Positions 10,061-58,106 of a stretch of DNA of 64,000 nt are shown one piece after another. This stretch comes from Corythoichthys intestinalis (Eukaryota). Both the position numbers and the translations under genes were made by a program. Positions within the stretch are counted from its first letter, which is position 1. The number at the start of each line of letters is the position of its first letter. The notes under the pieces were generated by a model that was given only the letters and a program-made list of their open reading frames with translations, was not told where the DNA came from and did not search any database. The stretch is from NCBI RefSeq assembly GCF_030265065.1, contig NC_080406.1, forward strand, positions 15,977,094-16,041,093. Reading direction: 5' to 3'.

Positions 10061-10769
10061 TTTTTTTTTTTTTTTTGTCATTGCATGTAATTGACTTTCC
10101 TATGGTATGTGAATTTAAAATTAAAACTTTTTCGGTAAAATGTTGTTTATTAAAGTTGTAAAACAATAAACAACAAAAATGAATGAAATGAACAAAATAT
10201 TTTTTATAAGGGGTCAAAATAATTTTTCGAACAGATCATGTGACTAGCACCACAGAGACTGTCATTTGCTTTGCTTAGCAAAAACCACCTCAGGATAGAA
10301 GAAACAGGATGCATATATGTAATTTTTTTTCAAACCTGAGCTTCCAAAAGCAACACCAACTACTGAGCGAGAACCAAGAATTGAAGACGTGGACCATGAA
10401 ACGCCGGAGAGCCCTGCCAAAGGGATGAACGGAGTTTCAGTTTGCCCCACTAAAGACGTTAACTGTACAACAAAGCCACCACCAGGGGTACCACATTCAA
10501 TGGACGACAATCTTGGCCAAAAGCACAGCTGTCCTAAGGAGCCTGATTTAGAATTCCCCTAAAAATGATGGGGAACAAAACAAAAAAATGCTCATTTTGA
10601 ACGCATTATTGTAAAGATTCCTGGCTGGAATATTCAGTCACAAAGGATGTGGCATCAACTTCACTAGGTAAGGCAGAAAAATGCGCCTTCACAAACGCAA
10701 GCGCACACACAACTGGGATGCGATTTCTGTATGTACGAGCATGGGCTCAGCTATCCGGGCATATATATT

Positions 10770-13099: not shown

Positions 13100-13625
13100 A
13101 GCGAATATTTTGTCCGTGGAGTGTTGATAATTGCAATTTTACTTTACTGTTACCTAATTTAAAATAACCCCTACTTACTACTCAATAGGATAGAATAGCC
13201 ATTTATTGTCATTAACAATATACACTGTATAATTGTGTAATTGGTATCTTTGCTAATTCACTTAGCATATTGACCATTTTGTCCGTAGAGTGTTGATAAT
13301 TTCACTTTTACTTTACTGTTACCTAACTTAAAATGACACCTATTTACTACTCAATAGAATAGAATAGCCCTTTATTGTCATTATATAGTGTGATAATGAC
13401 AATAAGGGGCTATTCTATTCTATATTATTATACAAGGTGTATTTATTATCCACTGTATAATGACAGTAAAGGGCTAGTCTATTCTGTTCTATTGAGTAGT
13501 AAGTAGGGGTCATTGTAAGTTGGGTAACAGTAAAGTAAAGTAAAAGGGAAATTATCACCATTCTCCAGACAAAATGGTCAATATACTAAGTGAATTAGCA
13601 AAGATGCCAATTAACAGTGGTTGAA
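13100..13625. repeat. Composite repeat in ube2a intron 1: two direct copies (~13107-13250 and ~13277-13390) followed by an inverted copy (~13395-13620), forming a ~230-bp-arm palindrome centred near 13392
   Basis: The motif …ttactttactgttacctaa(c/t)ttaaaat…ctactcaatag(g/a)atagaatagcc(a/c)tttattgtcatta… recurs directly and then as its reverse complement (…taatgacaataaggggctattctattcta…tagttaagtaggggtcattgtaagttgggtaacagtaaagtaaa…). Confidence 0.75.
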
Positions 13626-36055: not shown

Positions 36056-36206
36056 TCATCTTTCAAATAGATTCTTGAAGACGGGTCCGATTTCTTGGAT
36101 CATATCCGACGTGGTGGTGGACCGGCCGTGTCGCTGGAACGCTTGTCTGTTGCACTGTCTGGTGAGCGACGAGGCCCCCATCGCCGCCACCACTGACGGG
36201 TTCACA
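36056..36206 (-). CDS. naxd: naxd exon 9 (last): …[49 protein letters not shown]
   Basis: Acceptor …ctcaccgcag and stop TGA at 36056-36058. The peptide matches the human NAXD C-terminus ([37 protein letters not shown]). Confidence 0.85.
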
Positions 36207-36282
36207 CTGCGGTGAGACATAATAATGGACTTGAGCCACATCCATATTTAATGTGTCCTATCAGGTTTTATGGCGCACCCAC

Positions 36283-36406
36283 CCTGTTATTAGTCCTGCT
36301 TGAGAGGCAGCATGGGCCCAGTGTGCCAATACCCCAGCAGATCCCGAAAGAAGATCACCTTGTCCTCCGCATCGCCTCGCGCTTCCCTCTGTACTGCACG
36401 CCACCA
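36283..36406 (-). CDS. naxd: naxd exon 8 ([41 protein letters not shown])
   Basis: Acceptor tttttttgcag and donor gtgggt. The conserved [12 protein letters not shown] motif is present and the phase is consistent. Confidence 0.85.
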
Positions 36407-36471
36407 CTGCAAAAAAACAAAAAAAAGTTGACGTCATTAACTCAATCACTTACATATAAATCAATACAAAC

Positions 36472-36769
36472 CTGTGCTGCCATCTGCAATTAGATCTTTC
36501 TCTCCTTTAAGTAACACGGTGATGTTTCCCATGGTTTCGCTCAGCTGTAGGACGCTACTACGGTGATCGCTGCCGTCGACCGCCTTGTGTTGCTGAGAGA
36601 ACAATACTTGGACGGGATTCGCATTTTCAACAGATTTGGAATCGGCATTTGGCGAGACACCCACCAGCGTCTCGTACAGCCGCGTAAACTCCATGAAGTT
36701 GGGTGTAATAATGCCCTTTTGGTAGCCCTGAATAACAGACGGCTGCTTTGTCACCAGCCATAATCCATC
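36472..36769 (-). CDS. naxd: naxd exon 7 (DGLWLVTKQPSVIQGYQKGIITPNFMEFTRLYE… …LLKGEKDLIADGST)
   Basis: Acceptor ttccgcttcaag and donor gtttgt. It aligns with human [33 protein letters not shown]… and carries about 20 extra residues in the middle. Confidence 0.8.
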
Positions 36770-36973
36770 CTTGAAGCGGAAAAAGAACAGCAAAGTGGGT
36801 AACACCATCAAAAAAACAAACAAAAATCTAAATACTGAATTAGCATGAATTACTGTAATAATGATGACATTTGAACTGTGTTTCTTTTTTTTACCACAAG
36901 CAAATAAATACCATAGATATCATTACTATGAAGTCTATGTAAATACATTGTGGAGGTGACTAAATAAACTCAC

Positions 36974-37024
36974 CGCATCGATGACAATTGGAATATCTCT
37001 AGCTTTGGACTTCTCTATTACCTC
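36974..37024 (-). CDS. naxd: naxd exon 6 (EVIEKSKARDIPIVIDA)
   Basis: Acceptor ctctttgtag and donor gtgagt. It aligns with human …EVSKARDIPVVIDA. Confidence 0.8.
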
Positions 37025-37180
37025 CTACAAAGAGAATAAAACACATCAACTTATTCACTGCCAATGACGGTGATAAGCATTCGATTGCTGCAAGTCTTTC
37101 TCACTCAAAATTGGATGAGACGCCTAATATTGTCGTAAGACAAACAACCCACAAATGTAGCATTTTTATACAATACTTGC

Positions 37181-37289
37181 CTTTGCTGTTTTTAATAAGA
37201 ACTCCTCTCTTCCTAGACCGGGCCCCACCACAAGGCTGTGTAGTCTCGGCAGCCATTTTTCAATCTCCTCCACAGCGTTTGGGCTGTCC
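37181..37289 (-). CDS. naxd: naxd exon 5 ([36 protein letters not shown]) with a GC donor (AAG|gcaagt)
   Basis: Acceptor acctttaatag lies directly 3' of a (GT)n/(GTGC)n tract on the coding strand. Only a GC-AG intron gives an in-frame join to exon 6; every GT alternative runs into a stop. Confidence 0.7.
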
Positions 37290-37299
37290 CTATTAAAGG

Positions 37300-37300
37300 T

Positions 37301-37382
<82 letters not shown>
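37300..37382. repeat. Compound microsatellite (GCAC)8(AC)24 abutting the 3' splice site of naxd intron 4
   Basis: Seen directly in the sequence. Confidence 0.95.
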
Positions 37383-37385
<3 letters not shown>

Positions 37386-37957
37386 TGACATGCATACACA
37401 GTTAATTACTTTAACCATGCATTACTAATATTTTATATGGAAGTACATTTAAAAGTTTGCTAAAGACGTCTTTAAAACTCAACTCATTCTTGGTTTATGT
37501 GTATGACCCATCAGTTAATCTCAAATTATTATTCACAATTAAAATGTATTATTTCAAGTTAAAATACATATTTTGATTGGTTTCTATGTTAAAACTATGT
37601 CATTTACTACTTTAAAAATCATCAAATTGTGTGTATGACAATGCGATTAATCGCAGTTAATCTTACGTGATTGAGACCAAAAATGCTTAATCATTGCCCA
37701 GCCCTACATTAAACATGAAATATCACTTTTCAAGCAATTGCACTTTTAGGCTAGGTTCATACCACAGGTCTTAATGCCTAAATCTGATTTTTTTTCGTGT
37801 TTTTCCGACTCGAGTCAGGCATTAACTTGACGGTCTGACTGCTATTTTCAATCGAGCCAGTAAATGTAGTACGCATGAGCACTAACTTGCAGTCCAACAT
37901 GTGCTAAGAAAACTGACCGGCATGTGCAGAAGCATCAAAACAAATGACTACACATGC

Positions 37958-39050
37958 TGGCTCTACGTCATTCTAGGGTGATCATTTTTTGATTTCCAAA
38001 AAGAGGACAAAAATAACAGACATAATCCCTGTTTAAATTCATGTTCAAAATTTATATGGATTGATAGAACGCATGCACACACTGTGTGTGCATGACGTAT
38101 ACACATACGGTCAGTTTGCCCAGACTCTCAGTCATGTAAGCAATATTGAAATACAGTACTGCTTATTTGGTGCACAGAAAGAAGACAGAGTATTCTCAGG
38201 CTTATTTCCCTCCCACAATTTTATTTTTTTATGACTGTTGTCAAGCCCGCCTCTTCCCTAAAAGTAGAGTTAAAGCTAGGCGGTAATGCTAATGTACAGC
38301 TCCATCGCTGCCGTCCTCCGTGCCTCTCGCTCTTTGCTGACATAATTGCTGCATGAATTCCGCTTTGTGAGACTTGACAGTTCAGACCGCAGCCACATTC
38401 TGGAAAAATGTGGCCCAGATCAGATTTTAACCACATACCAAGGTGACCTAGCTCAGATTTGAAATGGTCCACACTTATCAGACCTGTCCCGCTCATATCA
38501 TCAACTTAATGCCCCACTCGAGTGGGAAAAACACGAAAAAATCAGATTTGTGCATTAAGACCTGAGGTATGAACCCAGCCTCAGTAGACCATTTCAAATA
38601 TGATGTAGGTCACTTTCATATGCGGTTAAAATCCTATCTGGGCCACATTTTTCCAGAATTTGGCTGCCGTCTGAAGTATCAAGTCTCCCAAATCGTCATT
38701 CATGCATCAATTACGTCAGCAAAGAGCGAGAGAGGCAGGGAGGACCGTGGCGATTGAACTGTGCATTACCGTTAGCGCACAGCTTGAACTCAGCTTTTAG
38801 GCAGGAGTTGGGTTTTACCCATAATGAAAAAAAGTAAAATGGAAAAAAAAAGGTAAGCCCAAGAATGCTGGGTTTTATTTTTGTGTGCCATATGAGCAAT
38901 ATTGCTTACATGACCGAGAGTATGTGCGTATAAGTTCTATCAATCCATATAAACTTTGAATATAAGACTAAACAGGGATTATTTTTGTCTGAAATTTGTG
39001 TGCTTTATTTGGAAATCAAAATATGATCACCTTAGAATGACGACGAGCCA
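37958..39050. mobile_element. Long-TIR foldback-type element (~1.1 kb; ~130-bp TIRs at 37958-38085 and 38925-39050) with an internal ~250-bp-arm palindrome centred near 38530, in naxd intron 4
   Basis: Left TIR ctggctctacgtcattctagggtgatcattttttgatttccaaaaagaggacaaaaataacagac… matches the reverse complement of …gtctgaaatttgtgtgctttatttggaaatcaaaatatgatcaccttagaatgacgacgagccag. The mirror-image ORFs 38221-38496(-) and 38569-38757(+) are artefacts of the internal palindrome. A further inverted copy of the palindrome tip lies at 37745-37835. Confidence 0.65.
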
Positions 39051-39194
39051 GAATGTGTAGTCATTTGTTTAGATGCTCCTGCGCATGCGGATCAGTTTGC
39101 TCAGTACGTGTTGGATGCGAGTAAAGTGCGCATGCGTAATACTTGAACGGGCTCAATGGACAAAGGCAGTCCGAACGGGCACGCCAAAAAACAG

Positions 39195-40250
39195 ATATGG
39201 CGGAAAACACAGACAAGACTGTAAAAGCAGTTCCTGCTCTTGAACCCCTTTTTAAAAGAAACTGCTGTATTTTAAGCCAAAAGAACTGTTGTGTTTGATA
39301 GAACAAGATGTCTATATGCTGCCATAGCAGATTCATGGCACAATAAGCCCCCAAACTATTTTTAATTTGTCCGTTTTACAATGGAAACCCCCGTTTACAG
39401 ACGTCGCGCAACCGCTTTTGTTTCAACCCAGCCATAAATATTTATATATAATTATATATAAATAATATTTATATTTATTATTCAAAATGTCATTTTTAGC
39501 TTAGAATCATTATATTTATTTCTCAAAATGTCATTTATAGCTTAGAATAATTAACTGATGTCTAATATATTGTTAAACAAAAAAAAAACAAAAAAAACGA
39601 CTTTAAAAAATTATTCACTCGCATATTTTAAACTTTTAAACGAATTACGTCACAATGAAAAAATGGTGTCTGTAAATAAGTCACGGACATCTACCTCATA
39701 ACCATGGCTTAATTTTATTTAATTTTTGTTACTTTCGCATTTTCCCCGATATGTTTGGTGATAAATAATCGATCCAAACAAAGAAAAATTGAAAAAAAAA
39801 TTTAAAGGGTAAATATATGAAAAAGAACATCTCGCCACTCATTGATGTCTGTGATTTCTGCATCGAGACTCTTGTTATATTACCATGTTTCACCCATGAA
39901 ATCCCCCCAAAATCCGGCTGTGGCCATTCACATCTGTGTCTTGACACTCGATGATACATCCTACATGGAGTTTTTGGATCGAAATAAGGTAAGTACGTGA
40001 TAATACCTCGTTAAAATCATGGCGTCTTTAAATATGCTCTCGCATGCTCTCAACTCCAGTTAGGGTTTTGCTGTTTAAAAAAATATTTTTTTAAAATGCC
40101 CTCCTGTTTAAAAATTTTCTTCCCTCAGAAAATTGAGATTTTAAGCTTTCTAATGATGCATCACACATGCATATAGGACAATTTTGAAATTTGGCCAAAT
40201 TGGGGGTCTCAGAGCTGAACTTCAAGTCACCTGAGTGTTTTCCGCCATAT
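39195..40250 (+). mobile_element. Repeat family D, copy B (1056 bp, forward)
   Basis: Termini atatggcggaaaacacagacaag… and …cacctgagtgttttccgccatat. Confidence 0.7.
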
Positions 40251-40426
40251 GACAAAAACGGAATTATGTATTAAGACCTGCAGTACTAAACTATCCTACG
40301 ATCCAAGTCCTAAAAAAATGTGTTACTTTACAAAAACAATTTGACAGTATGTAACTATAGCAGAAAGCAAATAGCGTTTTTCTTCCATCTGTTGGTGTGA
40401 TCGTTTTCCACAAATGGGCCACTCAC

Positions 40427-40515
40427 AAGACAGGATGAACTATGAGCTCCGGGCTGTAGGATTTGATTACAGCTGCAGCATCTTTGGTGCAGAACACGTG
40501 AGACAAGTCGGCACC
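40427..40515 (-). CDS. naxd: naxd exon 4 ([30 protein letters not shown])
   Basis: Acceptor ttatctgcag and donor gtgagt. It aligns with human [30 protein letters not shown]. Confidence 0.85.
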
Positions 40516-40582
40516 CTGCAGATAAGACAAACACATTGCAGAAACACCGCATTTAATGCAAAGTGCGATCCGTTTTTCTCAC

Positions 40583-40628
40583 CACTTTCAGTGCCGAAAT
40601 GGCAGCAAAGTAGGGCGCTCCGGTGTAG
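40583..40628 (-). CDS. naxd: naxd exon 3 (46-nt micro-exon, YTGAPYFAAISALKV)
   Basis: Acceptor ctttaccttcaag and donor gtgaga, followed by a 67-nt intron. Skipping the intron gives an immediate in-frame stop. Confidence 0.75.
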
Positions 40629-40723: not shown

Positions 40724-40874
40724 TCTTGGCATCCGCCTATGATACCGATTCGGCCATCTTGTCCCTTGTGCTTGTTGTTGGACAGCGGGGGAACGATCTT
40801 CTTCACCAGTGATAGGATGCGCTCCTCCATGCCGCCGTCAGATGTCGGGGCCAGGCTGTAGCGACGTTCAAACA
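40724..40874 (-). CDS. naxd: naxd exon 2 ([50 protein letters not shown](D/E))
   Basis: Acceptor tttatttgcgcag and donor CAAGA|gtatgt. It aligns with human LERAFSL…[30 protein letters not shown]. Confidence 0.8.
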
Positions 40875-40914
40875 CTGCGCAAATAAAAATCGTGATTACA
40901 AAATAACAATTCAC

Positions 40915-41110
40915 TCAATGGCTACCCTCGACGGCGATAGACGTCTAATCCATTTTGACTGGAAGGGCTGTCAGGGATTGAATAATCGATGTTAGCCCTC
41001 CCTGTCAAAATGCATTTGAACGTCTATCACCGTCAATGGCACTGAAACATGATCATTCACTGTCAGCCCTCCCTGTTCAAATGTATTGGACATTTATCAT
41101 CCTCCTGGGC
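40915..41110. mobile_element. Hairpin MITE family C: tandem pair of copies immediately upstream of naxd exon 2
   Basis: ctaccctcgacggcgatagacgtctaatccattttgactggaagggctgtcagggattg … ccctccctgtcaaaatgcatttgaacgtctatcaccgtcaatggcac …. Confidence 0.6.
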
Positions 41111-41296
41111 AACCAATGACTCGATTATATGGAGACAAAAAAAAGAGCCTTTAGTCCAAGACTTAGAGCCATAAAACGTTACCTTAATTAGTTTGTGCGA
41201 TCCTTGATCCATTGATTAATTTATATTTGTGTTCACAATCTAAAACTTTAAGTACAACAACACATACGGTATTCTGTGAATACAATACATACTAGT

Positions 41297-43470
41297 CTTC
41301 TCAAAAAATTAGCATATTGTGATAAAGTTCATTATTTTCTGTAATGCACTGATAAACATTACTTTCATATATTTTAGATTAATTACACACAACTGAAGTA
41401 GTTCAAGCCGTTTATTGTTTTAATATTGATGATTTTGGCAAAAAAAAAAGTCAAGAAAAAACAAAAATCCCTATCTCAAAAAATTAGCATATCATGAAGA
41501 TGTTCTCTAAAGAAGCTACTAACCTAATCATCTGAATCAACGAATTAACTCAAAATCCCTGCAAAAGATTCTTGAGGCTTTTAAAAACTCCCAGCCTGGT
41601 TCATTACTCAAAACCGCAATCATGGGCAAGACTGTCGACCTGACTGCTGTCCAGATGGCCATAATTGACACCCTCAAGCAAAAGGCTAAGACACAGAAAG
41701 AAATTTCTGAGCGAATAGGCTGTTCCCAGAGTGCTGTATCAAGGCACCTGAGTGGAAGTCTGTGGGAAGGAAAAAGTGTGGCAGGAAACTCTGCACAACC
41801 AGAAGAGGTGACCGCACCCTGAGAAAGATTGTGGAGAAGGTCTGATTCCAGACCTTGGGGGACCTGCAGAAACAGTGGACCGAGTCTGGAGAAGAAACAT
41901 CCAGAGCCACCGTGCACAGGCGTGTGCTGGAAATAATCTACAGGTGCCGCATTCCTCAGGTCAAGCCAGTTTTGAACCTGAAACAGTGGCAGAAGCGCCT
42001 GAACTGGGCTCCAGAGAAGCAGCACTGGACTGTTGCTCAGTGGTCCAAAGTACTTTTTTCAGATGAAAGCAAATTTTGCATCTCATTCGGAAATCAAGGT
42101 GCCAGAGTTTGGAGAAAGACTGGGGAGAAGGAAATGCCAAAATGCTTGAAGTCCAGTGTCAAGTACCCACTGTCAGTGATGGTCTGGGGTGCCATGTCAC
42201 CTGCTGGTGTTGGCCTACTGTGTTTTATCAAGGGCAGGGTCAACGCAGCTAGCTATCAGGAGATTTTGTAGCACTTCATGCTTCCATCTGCTGAAAAGCT
42301 TTATGGAGATGAAGATTTCATTTTACAGCACGACCTGGCACCTGTTCACAGTGCCAAAACCACTGGTAAATGGTTTAAGGGGCAGTTTACATAGCGACTC
42401 TGCGACACAAAGACGCAATAACTGAGTACTCGCCTCCCTGCATATGGTGTCGGCTTAGACGAAAAATTCTGAATCCTGCCTCCAAAGTGGAAGAATCCCA
42501 TTGCGGGGGATTGAAGGGGGCTTCCTCGGCATGCATATCAAAGGCTCCCGCGGCGCGATCGCGCCGATAACGTCAGCACTCGTACACGTCACATTAGTAG
42601 CACCGCTGCGTATGCCCAAACATTAAAAACAGCAAATATGGCAGAATGTCGGCTTTAATTTACTGTTTTAATAATATTTTTAAATTAGATATGTTGAATG
42701 TTTCCATTTTTGTGCCTTTTTGAACAAAAGAAAAATGCCATTGCTTCGAGTGGGCAGGCATATTTTTTTCCCGGGCTGAGGGAGCTTGGTGGGGTCAAAG
42801 TGCATCATTCTCTGTCGCCCTGTAAATCTGCACTGCCCCCTAGGGCCTGACATGAATACTATATCATTTTCATTCGGAATTGCGACATTGTTCGAATGGA
42901 GGCGCAAATGCAAATTTGACATTTTTCGTTTTCTCGAAAAGTCACCATGTAAACGGCCCCTTACTGACCATGGAATTACTGTGCTCAATTGGCCTGCCAA
43001 CTCTCCTGACCTGAACCCCATAGAGAATCTGTGGGATATTGTGAATAGGAAGTTGAGAGACACCAAACCCAACACTGTAGATGAGCTTAAGGCAACTATC
43101 GAAGCATCCTGGGCCCCCATTAACACCTCAGCAGTGCCACAGGCTCATTGCCTCCATGCCACACCGCATTGAAGCAGTCATTTCTGCAAAAGGATTCCCG
43201 ACCAAGTATTGAGTGCATAGTTGATATAACTAATTGAAGGTTGACTTTTTTTGTATTAAAAAAAAAAATTGGGGCAGATGAAATATGCTAATTTTTTTAA
43301 ATTGGGATTTTTGTTTTTTCTTGCCTTTTTTGCCAAAATCATCATAACAATAAAAGGCTTGAACTACTTCAGTTTTGTGTAATGAATCTAAAATATATGA
43401 AAGTCTAATGTTTATCAGTACATTACAGAAAATAATGAACTTTATCACAATATGCTAATTTTTTGAGAAG
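41297..43470 (+). mobile_element. Tc1-like DNA transposon with long (~200 bp) IR/DR termini and a degenerate DD34E transposase, inside naxd intron 1
   Basis: The termini 41297-41510 and 43270-43470 are reverse complements (cttctcaaaaaattagcatattgtgataaagttcattattttctgtaatg…). Internal ORFs give …WAPEKQHWTVAQWSKVLFSDESKF…, …WGAMSPAGVGLLCF… and …VLNWPANSPDLNPIENLWDIVNRKL…. Confidence 0.85.
41622..43172 (+). pseudogene. Tc1 transposase pseudogene, split by frameshifts and by a 580-bp MITE-H insertion at 42376-42956
   Basis: The transposase segments lie in three different frames with in-frame stops. The inserted element has termini ggggcagtttacatagcg … ccatgtaaacggcccc. Confidence 0.75.
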
Positions 43471-43624
43471 GACCTGTATACCAGGGCTGGCTGTGAATGA
43501 GTTGATACATTCTTGAATGTATTGAAGCAGCATGGATTTCCCCACTGCACAACAAATGAAAAAACTTTGCTGGTGGTAACCATCATGTTAAAACCAATTG
43601 CAATAATATCACTGAGCTGCAGCT

Positions 43625-44067
43625 CTACCACTGCCAGTTGACCACACAGGCGGCAGTAACCCCAATACCTAATGGCTGAGAGTCCCGTTTTAACGGCTGA
43701 CACCGCTTGGGTAAACCGTCAGCCGGCGGTGAAGGTTGGTGCTGCGAGTACATCGGCAAGTGTTGGGAGGGCGCGCCGGTCTTTAGTTGAGCAGGGGAGG
43801 AGATGTTGGAGAACATCTGCCCCAGCATCTGGAGCATGTGCAGCTCCCTGGCATGCTCTGCTTCCCGCCGGTTGTCCTCCGCCTGTAAACGGCGCTCCTC
43901 CATTCGGTAGAAGTTGTCCTCGGCCTGTGAGCTCTGCTTCAGGAACTGCTCCATGAGCCGTTCCAAGGGGAAGTTGGTGCGCCGCCGTCGCCGCTGCTTG
44001 GGTGTGGAAGCGGTGCAGTTCGCTGCCAACTGGCTGCTGTTGGGATTCGGATGTTGTTCCGATGTAC
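43625..44067 (-). CDS. Myb/SANT-like gene exon 2 (…STSEQHPNPNSSQLAANCTASTPKQRRRRRTNFPLERLMEQFLKQSSQAEDNFYRMEERRLQAEDNRREAEHARELHMLQMLGQMF…*): basic NLS plus coiled coil
   Basis: Acceptor tcccgttcccttcag. The phase-1 join with exon 1 gives a continuous 319-aa ORF, and the stop sits at 43625-43627. Confidence 0.6.
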
Positions 44068-45409
44068 CTGAAGGGAACGGGAGACATTTTCATTTCCATA
44101 TTTTTGAATCTATAAGCTGCTACTTTTCCCCCACACCCTTTGAAACCTACGGCTACCAAGCATTACAGGCTTACTAGCATCATTCTTCCTAGTTTACTCA
44201 TTAATTTTGGTTAACGTTATGATGACGGTGCCACTTTAGGTGAATTCAGAGTCGTTACCTATGAACGCGAGTAGTCATTTATCCAACGAAAATCAGAATT
44301 TCAGACTGTAGCAGACAAGCTTGGAATTTATTGTCCAATGCACTTGTAGCTTACTTGCTACATTCAAGGTGAGTTACAAGTTTCTAAGGCTTCAACAACT
44401 AATATTTTTTATTGATTAATAAATTTGGTTGTTAACGAATTTGATAATTTATTTTTGCCGGCAGCTACAGCAGTACAGTTTGGGTCCTTGTTTGCGTGAA
44501 CTGTGAAGCTGCGCGCGCGCCAGAGATTAGGGCAAGAAAGAGAGAGTTCACTGCGACACTCAGGTTTAGTTGCTCAATCAATAATATCTACGCAAAAGTC
44601 TTGTCTTGAGTTGTGTGTGTTATTAGATCCAGTCTGCCTCCGACAGAGGTGAGTAAATGAAGCCAATTTTTTTGTTTGTATTCTTTGTTGATGAGACATT
44701 ACTACTTAGCAGGGAGCGCTAAGCTAGTTAGCGATTATGCTAATCAGCGTCTTAAGTGTCGGTTTGTATAGTGTTTTGGAGAGGCAAGTTAGCAGTTGAG
44801 GTACTGTTTGATAGTAAAGTTATCTATTTGTTTTTTTATAAAGAAACCACACACATAACCCATTCATATAACAGTTTAGAGTCACCTTTCAGCAAAAACT
44901 CACATTCAAACTGTAAATCGTCATGCAAGAGAGTGTGCTTTGAAATTGGATTTGGATTGTATTTATGAACAACTGTTTGATAAATTAAAACTGATTCATT
45001 AGTCTGCCTCCTCCCTATTCGATTTTGTTTAGTTTAAGAAAATAAATGAGTCATTGACACCATTTGTATCAGCGATTTGCCCACCAGAAAAAAAAATGTC
45101 AATCAGCAGCACTTTTTTTCATTTGAATGAACAGGACTAATTTGTGTACTGAGAAATACTCTTTTATACTAAGAACCTTTATTAAAACAAGTATTATGTA
45201 CTTAAAACGGTACAGTTGTAGACTACAGTTAAGTCAAGTCGCTGTAATAAAATATTATTTTTGAAGGAAATAGTCATCCAGTTTGTCTTCATAGCTACTT
45301 ACAACATGCCTAAAACAACTTTGGGTTAAAATGTGAAGGTAATTGAAATGTATCCGATTAATCGTTTAATTAAACGTCTGATTAATTGAATATAAGAAAA
45401 TAATAGTTA

Positions 45410-45850
45410 ATCGCCTTCCAAGCTGCGTTCAGACTGCAGGCATATCTGATTCTAATGGGATTCCTCCTCAGATCTAATTTTTAGGGCTGACTGTTCCCAC
45501 TATTTTTTGCAAGTGTCCAAATAAGATTTGGGCCTGTTCAGACTGGGCCACATTATTGACACACCTGACAGGTTGCTGTGGCAACAAATGCGTCATCCTG
45601 CACAAAGTAAGGTCACGCACAATCGAAAACCATCTGAGCTGTTCAGACTGGGAGGCATCTTGTCTATATCTGATACGAAACTACCTCCCATATGTGGCTT
45701 CAATTTGTATTGCAAAAATCAGATTTCTGTGCTTTGTGACTGTTCAGACTGACTACAATAGAGCCATCCAGGTTCTATCTGAATGGGTTAAAACTAAGAT
45801 TTTGGCTGCCAGTCTGAACAAGGCCTTATTGTTAAGCGAAGACACATTGT
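45410..45850. repeat. Repeat family G (recurrent gttcagactg motif), copy 1
   Basis: Collinear at ~80% identity with 53575-53990. Confidence 0.6.
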
Positions 45851-45889
45851 TAAGAGAAGACACAAGACCGGTACCGGCTCGTAGTGCAT

Positions 45890-46575
45890 TTGCTACCGGG
45901 CTGCAGAGAAATAGTAATTAATTTGTTAATGACCGCAATCTGGTCTGTGCCTCTTGACACATCAATATGCCTGTCTACTCTATGAATAATCCGAGTAGAG
46001 ATTTTTGTACGTCGCTCTCTTGTGGTTGGCCGCCATTACTAGGGTGTTTGCACACCTATAGCAGCTCGGCGTCAGTCAATGCAAACAGTAATGTTAGCTG
46101 CTGTTGGCTGTGTGTTGCGAGCGGCAACATCTTTGAAAGCTTTTTTTAATGGGGAAAAGGCCTCCTTGCCGAGCCAGAAGAGGAGCTTATACCCAAGTCC
46201 ATTCTGCATAATATGTGGCTAAAAGCTAGCAAACGAGGCAACAAAAGCGAATGCACTGAGAGCATCATACCTCGTGGCGAACCGCATTGCTAAAGCCAAG
46301 AAACCTTTCACGATTGGAGAAGAACAGATCAGTTATGCCTGCGACCAAAGATATTTGGCCTCAAGTTTTAGGAGAGGCCGCTGTTAAAAAAGGTTGAGAC
46401 GACATATGGTGAGTTACATTTTCCCTACACTTAATGTTCGTTTTTAGCCCCGTTGTGTTATTTTATATTTACTGTAATTTTCTGCCACACACTGCTGGTC
46501 CGTAAAAAAAAAAAAGGCCCACTTCAAACCGGACCGTTGTGCAAAAAAAAGGTTGGGGACCACTACACTAAAGAA
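45890..46575. mobile_element. Second, 5'-decayed and internally deleted hAT-N copy related to 30856-32373 (3' TIR ggttggggaccactac)
   Basis: 46140-46520 aligns with 31160-31690 of the intact copy, and 45957-45990 aligns with 30930-30960. Confidence 0.55.
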
Positions 46576-47486
46576 TGACTCATTGCAAACCTCAGGTGAT
46601 TTGGCATGTTTTTAAAATAAAGCTTATCCATAGTTTGCTATGACAAAGCTGCTATGCAAGCATGCTGCTTGCAGAGTTGGTGGCATTAGAAAGAACAACT
46701 TAAGGCTTGCCTTGGGTGATGTGACAAAATTCAAAAGAACGGACATCCATTCCATAGTGCGCTATGACATGGCTGCAACAAGAGTGCTAGAGTATAGTCA
46801 GATGTTGTTTATATGTGTATTTTTTTCTTCAAGTGTTGTAAGAATTGAACAGCTGAAGTGATCTTAAAAAAAAAAACAACAACAATAACTCGTAATTCCT
46901 ATAGTGTTCGCTGATTTGGAAATAGACATGTGCAGATTACCGGTTTCAAGGTATAACGTCAAAACCACAAGAATTTTCCATCATACAGTCCCTAAGGTAT
47001 TAGCTATTTGTCATGTCCCAAAAATGCACGGAGAAACGCCTCACTTCCAGCTGCAAGGCCCACCAGTTATTGCTCAGTGTTCGTGAATCAGCTGTGCGAC
47101 ACGATGGCTGGAGGAGGTTTAACTCCTGAGCCCCCCCCCCCATCGAAGAAAACGTAATCCTTGGTATGGGAATACTGTGGCTGCAGAAAAGTTTCAGACG
47201 GCCGCGGCTTAGAGGAGGAGGGCCAACCGACATGTAAAATATGTTTGCGGACTATGGCTGCCGAGGAGGCAATACCTCCAATATGATTTCACATTTATAC
47301 AAAATTAAAGGTTTGTAAGCACTCGAGGTGGGAATCTTTGGGTACCTAACGACTCGATTACGATTCAGAGGCTCCGATTCGATTATAAATCGAATATTGA
47401 TGTCACCCAAACCCCCCTTTTAATGTTTTGTACATTAGTACCAAAATAGTTTAAAAATCCTATTAGGCTAAACCAAACTAATTAGA

Positions 47487-48410
47487 GCTGGGAATCTTTG
47501 GGCACCTAACGATTCGATTACGATTCAGAGGCTCCGATTCGATTATAAAACGATTATTGATGCACCCCACTCCTTTTTTTTTTTTTAAAAATTTGTTTTG
47601 TACATTTTGTTCAAAAATCCTCTCAGGCTAAACCAAACTACTATTTCAGTCTCAAGTTAACATATAGCAGTAAACAAATATACAAAAATAACAGTAAATA
47701 AAAAACTCCAGTCCCCATTCTATATCAGCAGCTTTAAACTACTTTCAATTAATTTAATGTTGTGAATCAACCGTTAAAGTTGTTAAAATTGCTCCTGTTA
47801 TTCCATAATTTCTCTTTTGTCTACTTTCAACATGTAAAAGTTTTAAAACTATTTTAAAGATAGATTCAAGTCAATATTTTACCGATTTGGGAGTATTTTA
47901 GATAAAAAGTTAATTGGGTTCGCTTGGAAGGTTCGCAACAACAGCCTTGCAGGGAAGTGTACTGCTTTAAGATGGCGGCCGTTACTAACGCCCGCATCTA
48001 GTTTTTTGTAGATGTGCTGGTAACGATACCTAAGCTATAATGCATCTAGTCCTATATAAATGATATCTACCGTAACATAATGTGGCTTGTAGCAGCTTTT
48101 CGGCAGCAGTCAGGTATGTTGTTGTTTTTTTTTTTTTATCTCGTGGCATGAGTTGAGCTAGAGCCGTGAGTTGAGCATTGGCGTTACCCGAGGGGCCGGG
48201 TAATGAGAAGCATGATGTTTAGCTACTCTCGCTCCGTCCCTAATTGCATACCGAAGACTGCGCGGCGCGCTGAGTGTGTCGTACTTCTGCTTTACTTGGC
48301 ATGTTTCAATAATTGGAATTTGGATGTTTGTGAATCGTTCTCGAATCTTCCACGGCCGAATCGCGAATAATCTAAGAATCGGAAATTTTGCACACCTCTA
48401 AAACTAATAT
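47487..48410. mobile_element. Repeat family B copy 2 (full length). A partial copy lies upstream at 47321-47412 and a 3' partial copy at 48640-49135
   Basis: Near-identical to 8001-8870, including the aagatggcggccg motif. Confidence 0.65.
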
Positions 48411-49734
48411 TTAAGTATCAAGTTAACAGCTAAAAACATTGAATAAAATACTCAAGTCCCCATTCTGTATCAGCAGCTTTAAACTACATTCAATTAACTT
48501 AATGATGTGAATCAATCGTTAAAGTTGATAAAATTGCTCCCGTTATTCCATAATTTCCCCTCTGTCTACTTTCAATATGTCAAAGTTTTAAAACTGTTTC
48601 ATTATTTAAAGATAGATTTAAGTCAAGATTTTGCTGATTTAGGAGTATTTCAGATAAAAAGTTAATTAGGTTCGCTACAACAGAGCCTTCTAGAGAAGCT
48701 ACTGCTTTAAGATGGCTGCTGTTTACAACGCAGCAACTACTAAACGGCAAGCCAGTCATTTTGCATCTAGTTCTTTTTATATGTTCTAACACCGCATTCG
48801 TCTGTTATTTAGCATCTAGTTCTGCATATATGTGATATCTACTATAACCGTATGTGGCCGTATGTTCGTAGCAACTAGCAACTGGGTGTAGTTTGAACCA
48901 GCTGTCGGCCGCAGTCAGGTATTTTTGTTCTTTTATCTAGCGGCATGAGTTGAACATGATATTTGCTCTCGGTCCGTTCCTCATTGCGTCCTGAAGACCG
49001 CGCTGACTGTGTTTTAGTTCTGCTTTACCTGATATAATTCAGTAATCGGAATTTGGATGTTTGTGAATCGTTCTTGAATCTTCCACGGCCGAATCGCGAA
49101 TAATCTAAGGATCAGGAAATTCCGCACGCCTCTAGTAAGCACTGTCATGAATGTTTCCCACCAGCTACGAGAGTTAACTCTAGCGTGTTTAGTGTGTCTA
49201 GCAGTGGTAAAATGTGTCTTTTTTCTCTCAGGTAACTGCGTTAAGAAACTGTGTTAAGAAAGAGAGTGTGTGTATAATGTAAACATGATACGAGTCCTAC
49301 ACATGTGGTTTTTATGGAAAATAAACTAATTATTTTTGTTCTGATGGTAATAATGTTGAGCTATGGCTGTGGGTTTAGGCTCACCTAAAGGACTGCATTT
49401 ATTTTAATTTTAGATTTTTTAACTTAACATTATACTTATGTTCCAAATTGCTAATATGTTTTGAAAAATAAAAATCCTGTTCAATGGAAAAAAGCTTTTA
49501 TTTTATGTTTTTTGAAAACCCAGCTATCTCAAAGTAACACATTTTAGAGCTATAATTGCAATACCGTGATATTTTGGCTGAGAGTTATCATACTGTCAGA
49601 ATATATTACCAGCACATGCCTATTTGGAAGTAAACACATTCGTCGACTTGACTGCATTGAATTGAATTACAATAAAATCTCACAAGTGCAACACCAAACA
49701 TAAGACTTCCAAATAGTGGATACACAAGTTAACT

Positions 49735-49805
49735 CGGTGACTGCCATTGACGACAGTAGATGTCCAATCCACATCTATCACCGTCAATAGCAGTGAATCA
49801 GTTAA
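49735..49805. mobile_element. Hairpin MITE family C copy
   Basis: actgccattgacgacagtagatgtccaatccacatctatcaccgtcaatagcagtg. Confidence 0.55.
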
Positions 49806-50032
49806 TAAAGGGTGTACTGTATAACAGCGATTTCAACAGATTAATTCCATAACCATCATTTTACTTTTAATTCCGACCAAATCTGGAACGGATTTCAGTG
49901 AATCGGATCAACTGAGTTAATCGGTCCTGCCTTCAGCCAAGTTGTATTCATACTACCAAAACTCAAACAATGTCTATAGTTAACACAAAAACAAGAAACT
50001 GGAAGCATCATGAATACTCCACGTGTACTTAC

Positions 50033-50549
50033 TGTTGTTTCCCACTGTGACCTTAACCGGGATGGGAATGGGAATACTGGGATACTCCAGTTTGACCTCA
50101 GTCTCTGCGGGAAAGGGACAGTCTCCGGTGCTCTCCGAATAGACATCCTGAGCATCCTCCGCATCTTCATCTAAGCCGTCCACGGCCTCCTCCCCTCCCG
50201 GCCCTCCGTCAATGAACTCCTGGGGGTCAAGGGCGGGCCGGTTGCTCAGAATCCTCTCCATGGTGTCGTAGAACTTAGCGATCTTGTGGTACTGCCTGTT
50301 ATTACGCAGATTGCCCTCTTTGGCGAGCAAGTATTGTCGTTTGAGGCTCTTAATGCGCACCCTACACTGCTCCGGCGTGCGCTCGAAGCCCATCGCCCCC
50401 AGCCGCCGGGACACGTCGCGGTAAACGAAGCTGTTGCGGAAGTTCCCGTCCAGCGCCTCCTGGACGTCCTGCTCCCCCCAAATGTTTAGCAACGTCCTCG
50501 TCTCCGCGTCCGACCACAGAAAGCCCCGGGTCGTGGTGTTGAGCAGCAT
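50033..50549 (-). CDS. Myb/SANT-like (Myb_DNA-bind_4 / trihelix-type) gene exon 1: MLLNTTTRGFLWSDAETRTLLNIWGEQDVQEALDGNFRNSFVYRDVSRRLGAMGFERTPEQCRVRIKSLKRQYLLAKEGNLRNNRQYHKIAKFYDTMERIL…
   Basis: ATG at 50549-50547. The ORF-track start at 50603 is a TTG. Donor AACAACA|gtaagt at 50032. The N-terminal W…W…R…K signature is typical of Myb/SANT-like DNA-binding domains. Confidence 0.6.
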
Positions 50550-51046
50550 AGTCGCGCCTCGATGGATGTCTGGCCTGCTTCGCAACCTGCGCGTCGGCTC
50601 CAAAAACCTCTGGCGGGATCGCTATCCGAGCGTTCGAGTGGATTCAAATGCTCGAAGCGGACGTATTGTTCAAACGGGGGAGCGTTTGCCCACCGAATGT
50701 CGGCGTTCTAGCTAAAACCTTTCCATGTTTATCCCTTTACGTCGCTCGCAAAAATGCCAAGCTTGGAAGTTTCGGCCAAACTGAACAAGGACCAGCTCCC
50801 AAACCCAATCTCCGTCTTCAGCCTCATTTTGGAAAATTTACAAAACTGACCTCTGATCGGTCCTCTGAGGGAGACGGCCCACGTCAACCCCCTGGTGTCT
50901 ACGGGGTCCTAAACACCTCCGATTCTCCATTTCATGCTAATACAGCTGTCAATACTTACACCGAAATAAACATTTTGGGTGAATTAAAAAGATAGAATGC
51001 CTTAATAAGAAATTTAGACTATATTAAAAAGCTGGACTCACGTTAC

Positions 51047-51146
51047 CTTTCATGTGTAAACAGAAGAATGTGGCGAGAATGGACAGGGTTACGGTGGTAA
51101 ACAAGAAGACGAGCGTCTGAACGGTATGCAGCATGTTATCGTTCAT
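51047..51146 (-). CDS. naxd: naxd exon 1 (signal/targeting peptide: [MNDN]MLHTVQTLVFLFTTVTLSILATFFCLHMK), donor AAAG|gtaacg
   Basis: A hydrophobic N-terminal segment ends in a phase-1 donor that joins exactly to the phase of exon 2, giving …HMK-V-FERRYSL… Human exon 1 likewise encodes the targeting peptide that ends …PLDAV|LERAFSL. In-frame ATGs sit at 51146 and 51134. Confidence 0.55.
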
Positions 51147-51299
51147 TGACAGTCATGCTAGCCGCCGACACACGAGGTTTTCCACAAAAGGAGATTCGAA
51201 CTACGGAATTCTATCTGCTTACCTAAACTCCAAGTTCGTATCAATGCTGTCAACTGTGAATAAATACGCCTGGTCATGAGGCTTTCCTTAGCCACAGCA

Positions 51300-51890
51300 A
51301 TACAGGAAGAAATAGTTCACGATGCGTTCAAATACTACTCGGAAAATATCAAATCCACTCCAAAGCTGCCGTACATCGACAACCATTTTGTGACATAAAA
51401 CTCGAAATTTATAGAGGTAGATGTGTGTCTGTATTATTAACTTTTTTAAAAAGTTGCTTTAAAAAACTTGACTTCAATCAAAAAAAAAAAAAAAAAAAAA
51501 AAAAAAAACACACCAAAAAAAAAGTTTTCAAATGGATTTTTTTTGTTTTAAATTTATTTTGGCATCCAATTTTTTAATTCACATACATAAATATTTTATG
51601 ATGACAGAAATAGTTCACGATGCGTTCAAATACTAATCGGAAAATATCAAAACCACTCCAAAGCTGCCATACACCGACAACCATTTTGTGAGATAAAAAT
51701 CGAAATTATAGAAGTAAATGTGTGTCTGTATTATTAAATTTTTAAAAAGCTGCTTCAAAAAACGTGACTTCAATAAAAATAAAAAAATAAAACGCTAAAA
51801 AAAAATGTTTTCAAATGCATTTTTTTTTTAGTTTAAAATTTATTTTTGCATCCACTTTTTTTTTATTCACATTCATATGGCGGAAAACAC
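51300..51890. repeat. Tandem duplication of two ~300-bp units in the naxd upstream region
   Basis: agaaatagttcacgatgcgttcaaatacta(c/a)tcggaaaatatcaaa…ccattttgtga(c/g)ataaaa…gtctgtattattaa… occurs twice in tandem. Confidence 0.75.
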
Positions 51891-53464: not shown

Positions 53465-53990
53465 ACTCATCACCTTTTAGTGCTATTGACAATAATTGAT
53501 GTCCAAATACGTTTGAGCGAGGAGAGCTCACTGCCTGCCATCCCTGTTCCAATAGATTGGGCTTCTATCAGCCTTAGGTTGCATTCAGACTGCAGGCATC
53601 TCTGATTATAATCGGACTCCTCCTCAAATCAGATTTTTAGGGCTGGCAGTTCACACTATTTTTAGCAAGTGTCCAAATAAGATCTGGGCCTGTTCAGACT
53701 AGGCCCCATTATTGACACACCTGACAGGTTGCTGTGGCAACGAAGGCGTCATCCACCATAGAGTGACATCACGGACAGTCAAAACCCATCTGGGCTGTTA
53801 AGACTGAGAAGCATCTTGTCCATATGTGATATGAATAAACCTCCCGTATGTGGTTTCAGTCGGTCTCGCAAATATCAGATTTCTGCTTTGTGACTGTTCA
53901 GACCACAAAAGAGCAGTCCAGTTTCAATCTGGATGGGCTAAATATCTGATTTTAGCTGCTAGCCGGAAAGAGCTCGAATGTTTTAACTCT
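53465..53990. repeat. Hairpin MITE family C copy (53465-53580) followed by repeat family G copy 2 (53575-53990)
   Basis: See family C and family G above. Confidence 0.55.
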
Positions 53991-56867: not shown

Positions 56868-57057
56868 ATGCCCGAGTCTTCGAAGATGAGGAAGCCCGAC
56901 GTGAAGGTGGTGCTTTTGGGCGACATGAACGTGGGCAAGACGTCTCTTCTCCACAGGTACACGGAGAGGAAGTTTAAAGACACGGTCAGCACCGTCGGAG
57001 GGGCATTCTTCCTCAAACAGTGGGGACCCTACAACGTGTCCATATGGGACACTGCCG
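56868..57057 (+). CDS. rab20: rab20 exon 1: M(PESSKM)RKPDVKVVLLGDMNVGKTSLLHRYTERKFKDTVSTVGGAFFLKQWGPYNVSIWDTAG, donor gtaatc
   Basis: Near-identical to human RAB20 residues 1-60 (MRKPDSKIVLLGDMNVGKTSLLQRYMERRFPDTVSTVGGAFYLKQWRSYNISIWDTAG). A second in-frame ATG at 56886 reproduces the human start. Exon 2 is not in the window. Confidence 0.85.
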
Positions 57058-58106
57058 GTAATCTTGCTGTTCTAACTTCTAATGTCTTTGTTTTTCCGTT
57101 GGTGTACTCGGTGTGCCTGCTCAGTGGCGCGTTATTTCTCGGTTGAGGCAATCACTGGCATGTGATGTGACACGGATGGGAAATCGGCTCTCGTGGCAAC
57201 TTAAGAACATAAACCTGTGGTGATTCACTGGCCAAGGATTTAGCAAAACTGACACAATCCTGATTTAAAGCTCAATACAGTGTACCATAGCTGATAATAA
57301 AAATGAGGACTCAAGATTGTAGCACCAAAAATGTTATATTTATTTTCCCAAGCTCCGCTTAATTTGCTGGATAGACGAATCAGAGTTGCTAAAAGTTTTT
57401 TTCTTTTTTACATTGGCCAACCAGTAACTTCCATTTGCAACCTTGAAACTAGGAAACACATCAACAACTTTCCTACTGTTTTAATATGGGGCGCCGTTTG
57501 TAAAGCAGCACATGCTGAAAACTACGACATTTTCTCAAATTTAGCGTCACACAGTGTTGAAAACGTGGTGTGAAATTTTTAGAGTCACTTTTTTTTGCAC
57601 ATTTACAACATTATTTAGCAACCTAAACATTCATTTTTAAATAAGAAGTTTTGGACCTGAATGATTAAACCCAGAACTAAATATTTAATTTAAATCTTAA
57701 ATTTATATCCTATATCCTAAATGCTAAATCTGAAAACGGTTGGAACTAAATATTAACTTAATATGCAAATTCACATGACTGGAGACCGGAAGTCATATTT
57801 AGGGAGGTAGCCGGGCGGTCATTTTGAATTTGTTTTGTGAGGTTTGCTGAAAAAGTAATCATAAATAAAAACACTGACAGAATAAGAATCGTCAGGGAAA
57901 GAACCACCGGTACTTTGCATTAAAATGTATAGCTAAATATTGTTTCCAATGACCATTTATGAAAATATAAAATAGGATCAGTCTATAGACCCTACTCACC
58001 AACGTCACAGAATGACGTGTCGCTGTATCCGGCCGCCATATTGTTTCTCTCTGTTTAGCCCTATTCTCAATGGTTTCAATTAGTCGTTCAGTTTATAGAG
58101 CAATTC

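Follow-up and report, generated by a model that had tools for sequence, protein, structure and literature searches.

The two-exon Myb/SANT-like open reading frame (ORF) embedded in naxd of Corythoichthys intestinalis probably belongs to the naxd transcription unit, as an alternative 5′ coding module of ancient origin, rather than forming an independent nested gene. We analysed a window of 64,000 nucleotides (NC_080406.1, positions 15,977,094 to 16,041,093), in which a 319-aa minus-strand ORF (50549-50033 + 44067-43625) lies on the same strand as naxd between its exon 1 and exon 2, as a preliminary description of this DNA had reported. Exon structure, reading frames, donor conservation and purifying selection carry this conclusion, together with both junction types in RNA from other species. 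At least three alternative naxd 5′ exons (1a, 1b and the first Myb exon, M1) each end in phase 1. The window holds the following features:

51223..51277, minus strand: naxd first exon 1a (55 nt) with MTRRIYSQLTALIRTWSL, of mitochondrial-presequence type; phase-1 end at donor TTAG|GTAAGC
51047..51146, minus strand: naxd first exon 1b (100 nt) with MNDNMLHTVQTLVFLFTTVTLSILATFFCLHMK, of signal-peptide/anchor type; phase-1 end at donor AAAG|GTAACG
50550..51046, minus strand: spacer from exon 1b to the Myb ATG; 497 nt with conserved non-coding blocks
50033..50549, minus strand: exon M1 (517 nt), coding for the Myb/SANT-like trihelix domain (aa 12-100) and acidic linker; phase-1 end
44068..50032, minus strand: intron between M1 and M2; 5965 nt, full of dispersed and tandem repeats
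43669..44067, minus strand: exon M2 in cassette form (399 nt), with phase 1 at both ends and the weak donor TTAG|GTATTG
43625..43668, minus strand: read-through tail GIGVTAACVVNWQW; 14 codons and stop
40875..43668, minus strand: intron from M2 to naxd exon 2; 2794 nt, with a Tc1/mariner DDE_3 remnant inside
40724..40874, minus strand: naxd exon 2, common acceptor exon; starts in phase 1 (VFERRYSL...)
40628-40583, 40515-40427, 37289-37181/37172 and 37024-36974, minus strand: naxd exons 3-11, first part, from spliced reconstruction
36769-36665, 36592-36472, 36406-36283 and 36206-36056 (stop), minus strand: naxd exons 3-11, remainder, from spliced reconstruction

Reconstruction of exons 3-11 (36056..40628), with the fusion protein of RNA contig L001 as a guide, yields an NAD(P)HX dehydratase domain (PF01256, Pfam E=4.7e-54). 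Exon 1b and exon 2 join in frame, and the resulting NAXD of 348-351 aa is 88% identical to isoform X4 of Nerophis lumbriciformis over 100% of its length, signal-type N-terminus included. Exon 1b agrees with the N-termini of Nerophis X4 (P0123) and Solea X2 (P0087), exon 1a has a homologue in MTRVVCAQLSALRRTSSL, with which the NAXD X2 model of Pagrus major (P0085) begins, and exon 2 includes the cytosolic form's internal Met. The mitochondrial-type first exon (51277-51223) is absent from the preliminary description, which had also raised the alternative that exon 1 was misassigned, the signal-peptide exon being part of something else. We found no support for that alternative and regard it as highly improbable: the match to Nerophis X4 extends through a homologous hydrophobic N-terminus, Solea X2 and L001 carry the same exon type upstream, and in elephant mitochondrial-type and signal-type exons occupy the same place, with the Myb exon about 1 kb behind them. 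The original exon 1 assignment is thus right.

Coordinates and splice sites of the Myb ORF check out as first described. Its exons sum to 960 nt (319 codons plus stop), with the ATG at 50549, an ACA|GTAAGT donor closing M1 in a context also found in Albula, and the acceptor CCCTTCAG|G opening M2, which measures 443 nt when read to the stop (44067-43625). Pfam places PF13837 (Myb_DNA-bind_4) at aa 12-100 of the 319-aa protein (E=5.9e-19; 68.7 bits, cut-off 27 bits) and AlphaFold2 predicts that aa 14-102 form a helical bundle (pLDDT >90), bearing out the proposed N-terminal Myb/SANT-like domain. The proposed C-terminal basic and coiled-coil region is likewise recovered. M2 encodes, in order, the basic cluster KQRRRRR, a long helix and a fast-evolving S/P-rich tail, and the AlphaFold2 model shows the acidic linker as disordered and, besides the basic cluster, aa 207-261 as a single long helix (pLDDT about 95). 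Phase 1 is shared by the Myb exon borders and naxd exons 1 and 2, a point passed over in the preliminary description.

Within M2, 14 codons before the stop, a phase-1 donor (TTAG|GTATTG, exon end 43669) joins naxd exon 2 in frame to give an open Myb/SANT–NAXD ORF of 620-623 aa, and Pfam detects PF13837 and PF01256 on this one predicted protein. The donor is weak in all species examined, with GTA followed by non-consensus bases and never a G at +5; an xTAG|GTA donor, always in phase 1, is present in the window, in L002 and L007, in the Albula genome and in two birds, and is kept although the 40 aa before it evolve fast (pN 0.4-0.6). All RNA evidence comes from other species, with C. intestinalis judged by homology. 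Contig L001 (SRR13709133) comprises exon 1b, the spacer, M1 and M2, the last spliced at its internal donor onto naxd exon 2, and extends as far as the stop; its 609-aa ORF is collinear with the window. A fusion ORF of 609 aa is also present in L015 (SRR19345923), and P0163 is a spliced fusion near-identical in sequence to P0006 that, from this similarity, appears to derive from the same species as read-through contigs L007-L014. Assembled RNA of three fish samples (L001, L015 and P0163) carries the M2>naxd exon 2 junction, and gene models also place M2 as a cassette after a mitochondrial (P0085) or a signal (P0087) first exon, short-read contigs and Gnomon models being unable to prove that M1 and this junction sit on one molecule. 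The in-frame donor at 43669/43668 had escaped the preliminary description.

Sequence comparison indicates that the Myb/SANT ORF is open far beyond chance. Against other teleosts the Myb domain has a pN of 0.05-0.10 and a pS of 0.6-0.8, 46 columns are invariant across fish, bird and elephant, and purifying selection extends over domain, linker and coiled coil. The rab20/Myb/naxd/cars2 synteny is kept in Albula; among mammals the module was found only in elephant, where M2 has decayed. Fused RefSeq/Ensembl models of about 600 aa with PF13837+PF01256 exist for Latimeria (X1), Polypterus, Acipenser (X1) and Polyodon, further NAXD models of this size and composition for Cyprinus, Lates, Sphaeramia and others. 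Frogs and a bird have fused models too, of 512-547 aa, some of them truncated or without M2. The existence of a Myb/SANT–NAXD fusion is thus already annotated.

Myb-like proteins of Harbinger transposons contain trihelix domains of the PF13837 type, and the neighbouring introns are filled with repeats and contain the Tc1 DDE_3 remnant, as might be expected were the ORF a PIF/Harbinger-type passenger or a dead relic open by chance. Self-BLAST of the window places copies of 47321-49134 and 45424-45809, within the M1–M2 intron, at 8000-8857 and 53580-53959, and detects no repeats overlapping the Myb exons. Against a passenger or relic, the ORF is single copy within the window, the homologues found, from coelacanth and bichir to birds and elephant, are all orthologues linked to NAXD, and the ORF is under strong purifying selection. 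These observations refute a present-day mobile-element ORF, answering an earlier concern about multicopy transposon-borne sequence, and leave the passenger or relic with very little probability. An ancient domestication of a transposon ORF could still underlie the module.

The preliminary description took the ORF for a complete nested gene whose transcription must read through or compete with naxd pre-mRNA processing. An independent Myb/SANT–coiled-coil transcription-factor gene would have its own promoter and 3′ end, and the fusions would be read-through or gene-prediction noise. Consistent with such a gene, the ORF is complete, with its stop 14 codons past the donor, spliced M1–M2 read-through RNA contigs occur in at least 4 species (L002, L006 from a bird, and L007-L014), and some annotations of Albula, Danionella and elephant list Myb as a separate gene. 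The bird contig L006 ends about 25 nt past an AATAAA that lies 0.5 kb inside the intron, which suggests a separate 3′ end; in the window, neither AATAAA nor ATTAAA lies within about 1 kb of the Myb stop. In a MAFFT alignment with RNA contigs L001, L002 and L007-9, the spacer is either the 5′ UTR/promoter of Myb-exon transcripts or a retained piece of a long exon 1: it is CpG-rich towards the Myb exon (CpG o/e 1.2-1.3 at 50800-50400), L002 and L015 both start at one conserved spacer motif (about 50905 in the window), and L001 is unspliced from exon 1b across it. The CpG richness and the common start are again consistent with an independent gene. By contrast, the phase-1 donor kept at the end of a fast-evolving region, the M2>naxd exon 2 junction in three RNA samples, the use of M2 with other naxd first exons and the curated zebrafish fusion isoform all argue against an independent gene. 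Teleost read-through contigs (L002 and L007) continue via the retained intron into fully spliced naxd exons and so lack a separate 3′ end. We consider an independent gene unlikely. Because junction, frame and, in teleost RNA, 3′ end are common with the host, the Myb exons are better read as alternative exons of naxd; the nested coding sequence is real and conserved, but with M2 spliced to naxd exon 2 its description as a complete, competing gene is not supported.

The tail GIGVTAACVVNWQW is translated only when the M2 donor is unused, giving the 319-aa stand-alone protein, which may be a genuine product. Logan matches to the read-through form (P0001-3, P0006 with 9 contigs, and P0042) outnumber those to the spliced fusion (P0027, P0163 and P0166). 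Conceivably, although we doubt it, the fusion alone matters and the 319-aa ORF is a functionless by-product of intron retention, possibly lowering naxd output through NMD. In L007 at least eight spliced junctions follow the Myb stop, and teleost read-through transcripts would look like NMD substrates. Stop position and tail length also differ between species, at about 10-35 codons (10, 14, 17 or 34; 14 here) with some ORFs continuing, and the stand-alone tail is predicted to be disordered (pLDDT <50). A by-product fits less well with the recurrence of read-through in nine P0006 contigs (eight from separate RNA-seq runs, one contig in two samples), the similarity of the first tail residues (G-I/T-S-F-G/Y) between percomorphs and birds, and the possibility that the bird transcript has its own poly(A) site.

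We propose that exons 1a, 1b, M1 and an optional M2 cassette would all feed the phase-1 acceptor of naxd exon 2. Transcripts running from M1 through M2 into exon 2 and onwards would encode a 620-623-aa Myb/SANT–coiled-coil–NAXD protein, the orthologue of zebrafish Naxd isoform 1, and skipping of the weak M2 donor would retain the intron and stop the ORF after 14 codons, yielding the 319-aa protein. From homology we infer that C. intestinalis makes both. Since the Myb exons can be spliced in frame onto naxd, a metabolite-repair enzyme carries a predicted DNA-binding domain. It is tempting to speculate that the module, by way of its DNA-binding domain, KR-rich cluster and coiled-coil oligomerisation, might bring NAXD, or a trihelix factor co-expressed with naxd, into the nucleus or onto chromatin, in which case NAXD would have a fourth destination besides those of the known mitochondrial, ER and cytosolic forms.

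The closest known counterpart is curated zebrafish Naxd isoform 1 (NP_001315079.1, 625 aa), which runs from MLVNA.TRGFLWSD... through M2 sequence into Naxd (PMC12861718 Fig. S1A). The window shares architecture, locus and nearly the length with this isoform and with the PF13837+PF01256 NAXD models, as well as the junction motif P-L/I|V-(F/L/I)-E-R, and the zebrafish N-terminus corresponds to MLLNTTTRGFLWSD... in the window. In PMC12861718 the extension is called a long N-terminus that has no targeting peptide, and the DNA-binding domain goes unrecognised; we found no other paper mentioning it. Alternative first exons of NAXD give mitochondrial, ER and cytosolic forms, according to the passage of PMC9804276 citing Marbaix et al. 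As in mammalian NAXD/CARKD, the window combines one catalytic body (exon 2 onward) with destination-setting 5′ exons, of both mitochondrial and signal type; unlike the short mammalian targeting peptides, the Myb/SANT module comprises a predicted folded 100-aa DNA-binding domain and a 55-residue helix. The plant GT-1 trihelix domain (PDB 2JMW/2EBI) is the best PDB sequence match of the Myb domain (E about 0.01) and the best fold match to its predicted structure (probability 0.99, TM 0.61-0.70 on target), yet identity is about 20%, the animal protein is joined to a coiled coil and an enzyme, and its DNA binding is putative. Same-strand host/nested gene pairs likewise place coding exons of a different protein type in the host's first intron, whereas the Myb exons share splice junction, frame and, in teleost RNA, 3′ end with naxd. 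A cryptic TGT AAG T donor, present in M1 of the other species, is missing from M1 of the window.

Two exons between exon 1 and exon 2 of naxd, the gene for NAD(P)HX dehydratase (NAXD), encode a Myb/SANT-like protein on the minus strand. Their coordinates and splice sites were verified by reading the sequence (a slash marks each exon border):

50549-50033, minus strand: first Myb/SANT exon (M1), 517 nt, donor ACA/GTAAGT
44067-43625, minus strand: second Myb exon, 443 nt, acceptor CCCTTCAG/G

Joined, they give a 960-nt ORF with 319 codons and a stop, matching the 319 aa of the preliminary description, and the N-terminal Myb/SANT-like domain it proposed is recovered by the Pfam profile PF13837 (Myb_DNA-bind_4) at aa 12-100 (68.7 bits, cut-off 27; E = 5.9e-19; positions 4-89 of the 89-position profile). 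The sole sequence relatives in the PDB are the trihelix domains of Arabidopsis GT-1 (2EBI and 2JMW). An AlphaFold2 model built with 25 homologues as input places helices at aa 14-24, 27-34, 39-52, 59-77 and 87-102 (pLDDT >90) in a helical bundle spanning aa 14-102, followed by a disordered acidic linker, a single long helix at aa 207-261 (pLDDT ~95) and a disordered tail. Foldseek likewise ranks 2JMW and 2EBI first in the PDB, with probability 0.99 and TM(target) 0.61-0.70. Disorder in two thirds of the model keeps the E-values weak (0.09-0.13), and the fold assignment leans on Foldseek ranking and probability together with Pfam rather than on them. The predicted bundle resembles the GT-1 DNA-binding domain, and sequence-specific DNA binding is putative. 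Within this domain (50260-50275, minus strand) the window encodes HKIAKF, with GCT as the codon for aa 91, where all other species aligned have HKICKF; the TGT AAG T of those species forms a consensus GTAAGT donor that is used in the RefSeq models X4 and X5 (P0058 and P0059), and the window is without this cryptic donor.

Exon 2 of naxd starts in phase 1. M1 and the two alternative first exons of naxd, 1a and 1b, all end in phase 1, M1 and exon 1b because of their lengths of 517 nt and 100 nt. A further donor lies inside the second Myb exon, 14 codons ahead of its stop (CATTAG/GTATTGGG), and through it the exon would end at 43669:

51277-51223, minus strand: naxd exon 1a, mitochondrial-presequence type (MTRRIYSQLTALIRTWSL), 55 nt, donor TTAG/GTAAGC, phase 1
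51146-51047, minus strand: naxd exon 1b, signal-peptide type, 100 nt
44067-43669, minus strand: shorter second Myb exon (M2), 399 nt, symmetric, phase 1 at both ends
40874-40724, minus strand: naxd exon 2

Exon 1a lies about 75 nt upstream of exon 1b and has its homologue in the N-terminus of Pagrus NAXD X2. Spliced through the 43669 donor, M1, M2 and naxd exons 2-11 make an unbroken ORF of 620-623 aa that contains both PF13837, recovered again in a Pfam search of this predicted fusion protein, and PF01256 (Carb_kinase, NAD(P)HX dehydratase; 183.9 bits); M1 joined straight to naxd exon 2 is also in frame (490 aa). The predicted junction peptide of the fusion is DSQPL-VFERR, and the tail peptide of the 319-aa stand-alone form is GIGVTAACVVNWQW. 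The range in length reflects a probable GC donor in naxd exon 5. This exon probably ends at AAG/GCAAGT, 37181 (minus strand); the following GT donor, at 37172, would add three residues (ASI) that are missing from orthologues. The M2 donor is weak in all species examined, reading GTATTG in the window, GTATTA and GTAGTA in the RNA contigs L002 and L007 of other species, GTAGCG in Albula and GTACTT in a bird, with a G at +5 in none of the five. TAG/GTA is kept even though no part of the protein evolves faster than the 40 residues before it (pN 0.4-0.6), and a donor that is conserved yet weak fits a site used part of the time.

Exons 1b and 2 of naxd lie where the preliminary description placed them and join in frame, and the possibility it had raised of a wrong exon-1 assignment is rejected by the window NAXD being 88% identical over its full length to Nerophis lumbriciformis NAXD X4, the closest NAXD in the database. 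The ten downstream exons have canonical sites throughout, save the probable GC donor. Judged from sequence, the NAXD catalytic domain is present, intact and orthologous.

Use of the M1, M2 and naxd junctions is known from RNA contigs and gene models of species other than Corythoichthys intestinalis; since the contigs come from short reads and the models from Gnomon, neither can phase M1 with the M2-to-exon-2 junction. The RNA contig L001 (SRR13709133) is 2818 nt long. It carries exon 1b, the spacer between exon 1b and M1 in unspliced form, M1 itself, and M2, whose homologous donor is joined to naxd exon 2, and it runs on to the naxd stop; its 609-aa ORF is collinear with the window, and the M2 match stops exactly at 43670. 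A second fusion contig, L015 (SRR19345923), likewise encodes 609 aa, and the spliced fusion P0163, near-identical to P0006, appears from its sequence to come from the same species as L007-L014, contigs in which the M2 donor is read through. Both domains occur together in models of about 600 aa from coelacanth (isoform X1), bichir, sturgeon (X1), paddlefish, carp and many percomorphs. The fusion models of frogs and a bird span 512-547 aa, and some of these are truncated or have no M2. Across the gene models the junction always comes after P-L/I in the motif P-L/I-V-x-E-R. Because M2 is joined to NAXD behind both first-exon types, the mitochondrial type in P0085 (Pagrus X2) and the signal type in P0087 (Solea X2), it behaves as a naxd cassette. 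The alternative 5′ exons all match the phase in which the common exon 2 starts, and in the RNA or models of other species they are spliced to it. A complete and separate gene nested in naxd, as originally proposed, does not accord with the M2-to-exon-2 junction shared by L001, L015 and P0163 or with the cassette behaviour of M2. The evidence best supports a single transcription unit that uses alternative 5′ exons, which extends the known NAXD scheme.

Under the single transcription unit, the 319-aa protein would be the product when the M2 donor is skipped. M1 and M2 are spliced together and the M2 donor is read through in L002, in L007-L014 (eight RNA-seq runs of one species) and in the bird contig L006. 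L007 retains the ~420-nt intron after M2, with every downstream naxd intron removed. The teleost read-through contigs run on into naxd exons; L006 ends ~25 nt past an AATAAA, 0.5 kb into the intron, an end that would fit an intronic poly(A) site in birds. No AATAAA or ATTAAA lies within ~1 kb of the Myb stop in the window. The selected product may be the fusion, the stand-alone form or both. L007 (SRR26313429) looks bicistronic, holding at 347-2638 a 338-aa Myb ORF and, 370 nt on, a 300-aa NAXD ORF whose start, presumably the internal Met of exon 2, lies 3′ of the exon-2 acceptor; the Myb and retained-intron structure recurs in eight RNA-seq runs, and the NAXD ORF is reached only by L007 and L008. 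At the 5′ end, L001 is unbroken from exon 1b through the spacer, and L002 and L015, from two species, begin at the same conserved spacer motif (TCTCTAGGACCC; GTTTAGGACCCCGTAGACACC in the window, ~50885-50910, minus strand, start ~50905). This shared start may mark where Myb-exon transcripts begin, or it may be a splice acceptor or graph branch point. CpG o/e is 1.2-1.3 across the start of M1.

A multicopy transposon origin, with the ORF as one of many near-identical copies, had been named as the case that would undo the gene reading. It is rejected by tblastn and blastn against the window, which match only the two exons themselves. Repeats in the window are confined to introns, the Myb exons are single copy, and database homologues of the Myb module are exclusively NAXD-linked syntenic orthologues. 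By these window and database comparisons, the module is not an active or recent PIF/Harbinger-type transposon ORF.

In comparisons of the window with other teleosts, pN is 0.05-0.10 and pS 0.6-0.8 for the Myb domain; the two are given separately, and not as dN/dS ratios, because most fish comparisons show saturation at synonymous sites. The linker and the basic/coiled-coil part are under similar constraint. Across fish, bird and elephant, 46 columns are invariant. The gene order is rab20-like, Myb, naxd, cars2 in Albula and Myb-NAXD then cars2 in the bird, and a further exon in the window confirms conserved synteny:

56868-57065, plus strand: rab20-like small GTPase exon (Pfam Ras/Roc), in divergent orientation to naxd, an arrangement shared with Albula

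In elephant (L004), mitochondrial-type and signal-type exons are followed ~1 kb further on by an intact M1 (10001-10477) with the phase-1 donor GATG/GTGAGT and pN/pS of 0.11/0.36 against the bird. A standard tblastn search for an intact elephant M2 was empty, and a permissive search yielded only frameshifted remnants (~13218-13600; VGQMLA, AGPPQRASCRAYGD and FCAMTAALSPPL) with the donor mutated to CTA AGT. Searching proteins with elephant M1 matched birds, a turtle and fishes, and no other mammal.

NAXD deficiency in humans is a lethal disorder of metabolite repair, for which zebrafish now serves as a model. The known NAXD scheme comprises mitochondrial, ER and cytosolic forms (PMC9804276), to which the present locus adds a folded predicted DNA-binding domain with a coiled coil. 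In zebrafish, both curated (NP_) Naxd isoforms hold part or all of the Myb/SANT module: isoform 1 (NP_001315079.1; 625 aa, labelled 'long N-terminus') starts MLVNA.TRGFLWSDMETRALL...NFRNSHVYRDV... and passes through ...RPRRTKKRFANMSLEKLMEKFLEQS... into Naxd, as far as noisy OCR text allows, and isoform 2 begins within M2 (2026 paper, Supplementary Figure S1A, PMC12861718). That paper describes the extensions as not conserved with human and without targeting peptides, and notes nothing further. Our literature searches on NAXD with Myb/SANT, fusion or DNA-binding domains found no paper naming the extension as a trihelix domain, and none on conservation of the NAXD N-terminal extension or its loss in mammals; a search for Myb_DNA-bind_4 in vertebrates matched only a plant paper. 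Annotations of many species already include this arrangement, and in zebrafish it is curated, so that the window contributes a further orthologue to an isoform system that is known but functionally unstudied.

The module is a strongly conserved predicted trihelix DNA-binding domain with a coiled coil, common to coelacanth, ray-finned fishes, amphibians and birds and decaying in mammals. Its domain types and a KR-rich cluster suggest that it may act in the nucleus or on chromatin. Taken jointly, and as a speculation that we consider rather unlikely to hold in full, non-mammalian bony vertebrates would make a nucleus- or chromatin-directed NAD(P)HX dehydratase, equivalently a trihelix transcription factor physically coupled to a sensor and repair domain for damaged NAD(P)H, with the conserved weak donor switching between enzyme-bearing and enzyme-free forms, a system kept for >400 million years and dismantled in mammals. 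Recognizing the module means that a whole compartment or function may set the NAXD biology of fish apart from that of humans, offers a testable hypothesis of NAD(P)HX repair in the nucleus or linked to chromatin, or else of a naxd-coupled transcription factor, and advises annotators against splitting the locus into 'naxd' and a 'Myb/SANT domain-containing protein' gene.

Several repeats accompany the locus:

42680-43480: Tc1/mariner transposase remnant (ORF 42786-43172, plus strand, Pfam DDE_3 E = 9e-9), in the intron between the second Myb exon and naxd exon 2
47321-49134 and 45424-45809: unclassified, partly tandem repeats in the Myb intron; the copies at 8000-8857 and 53580-53959 are 83-91% identical

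Within the stretch that holds the Tc1/mariner remnant, 65 nt at 43406-43470 recur at 41297-41361 as a 98% copy. A (GT)n/(TG)n microsatellite (~37320-37395, minus strand) lies in the naxd intron immediately before exon 5, and a 93-nt direct repeat (51308-51400 and 51606-51698, 94.6% identical) lies just upstream of the naxd first exons.
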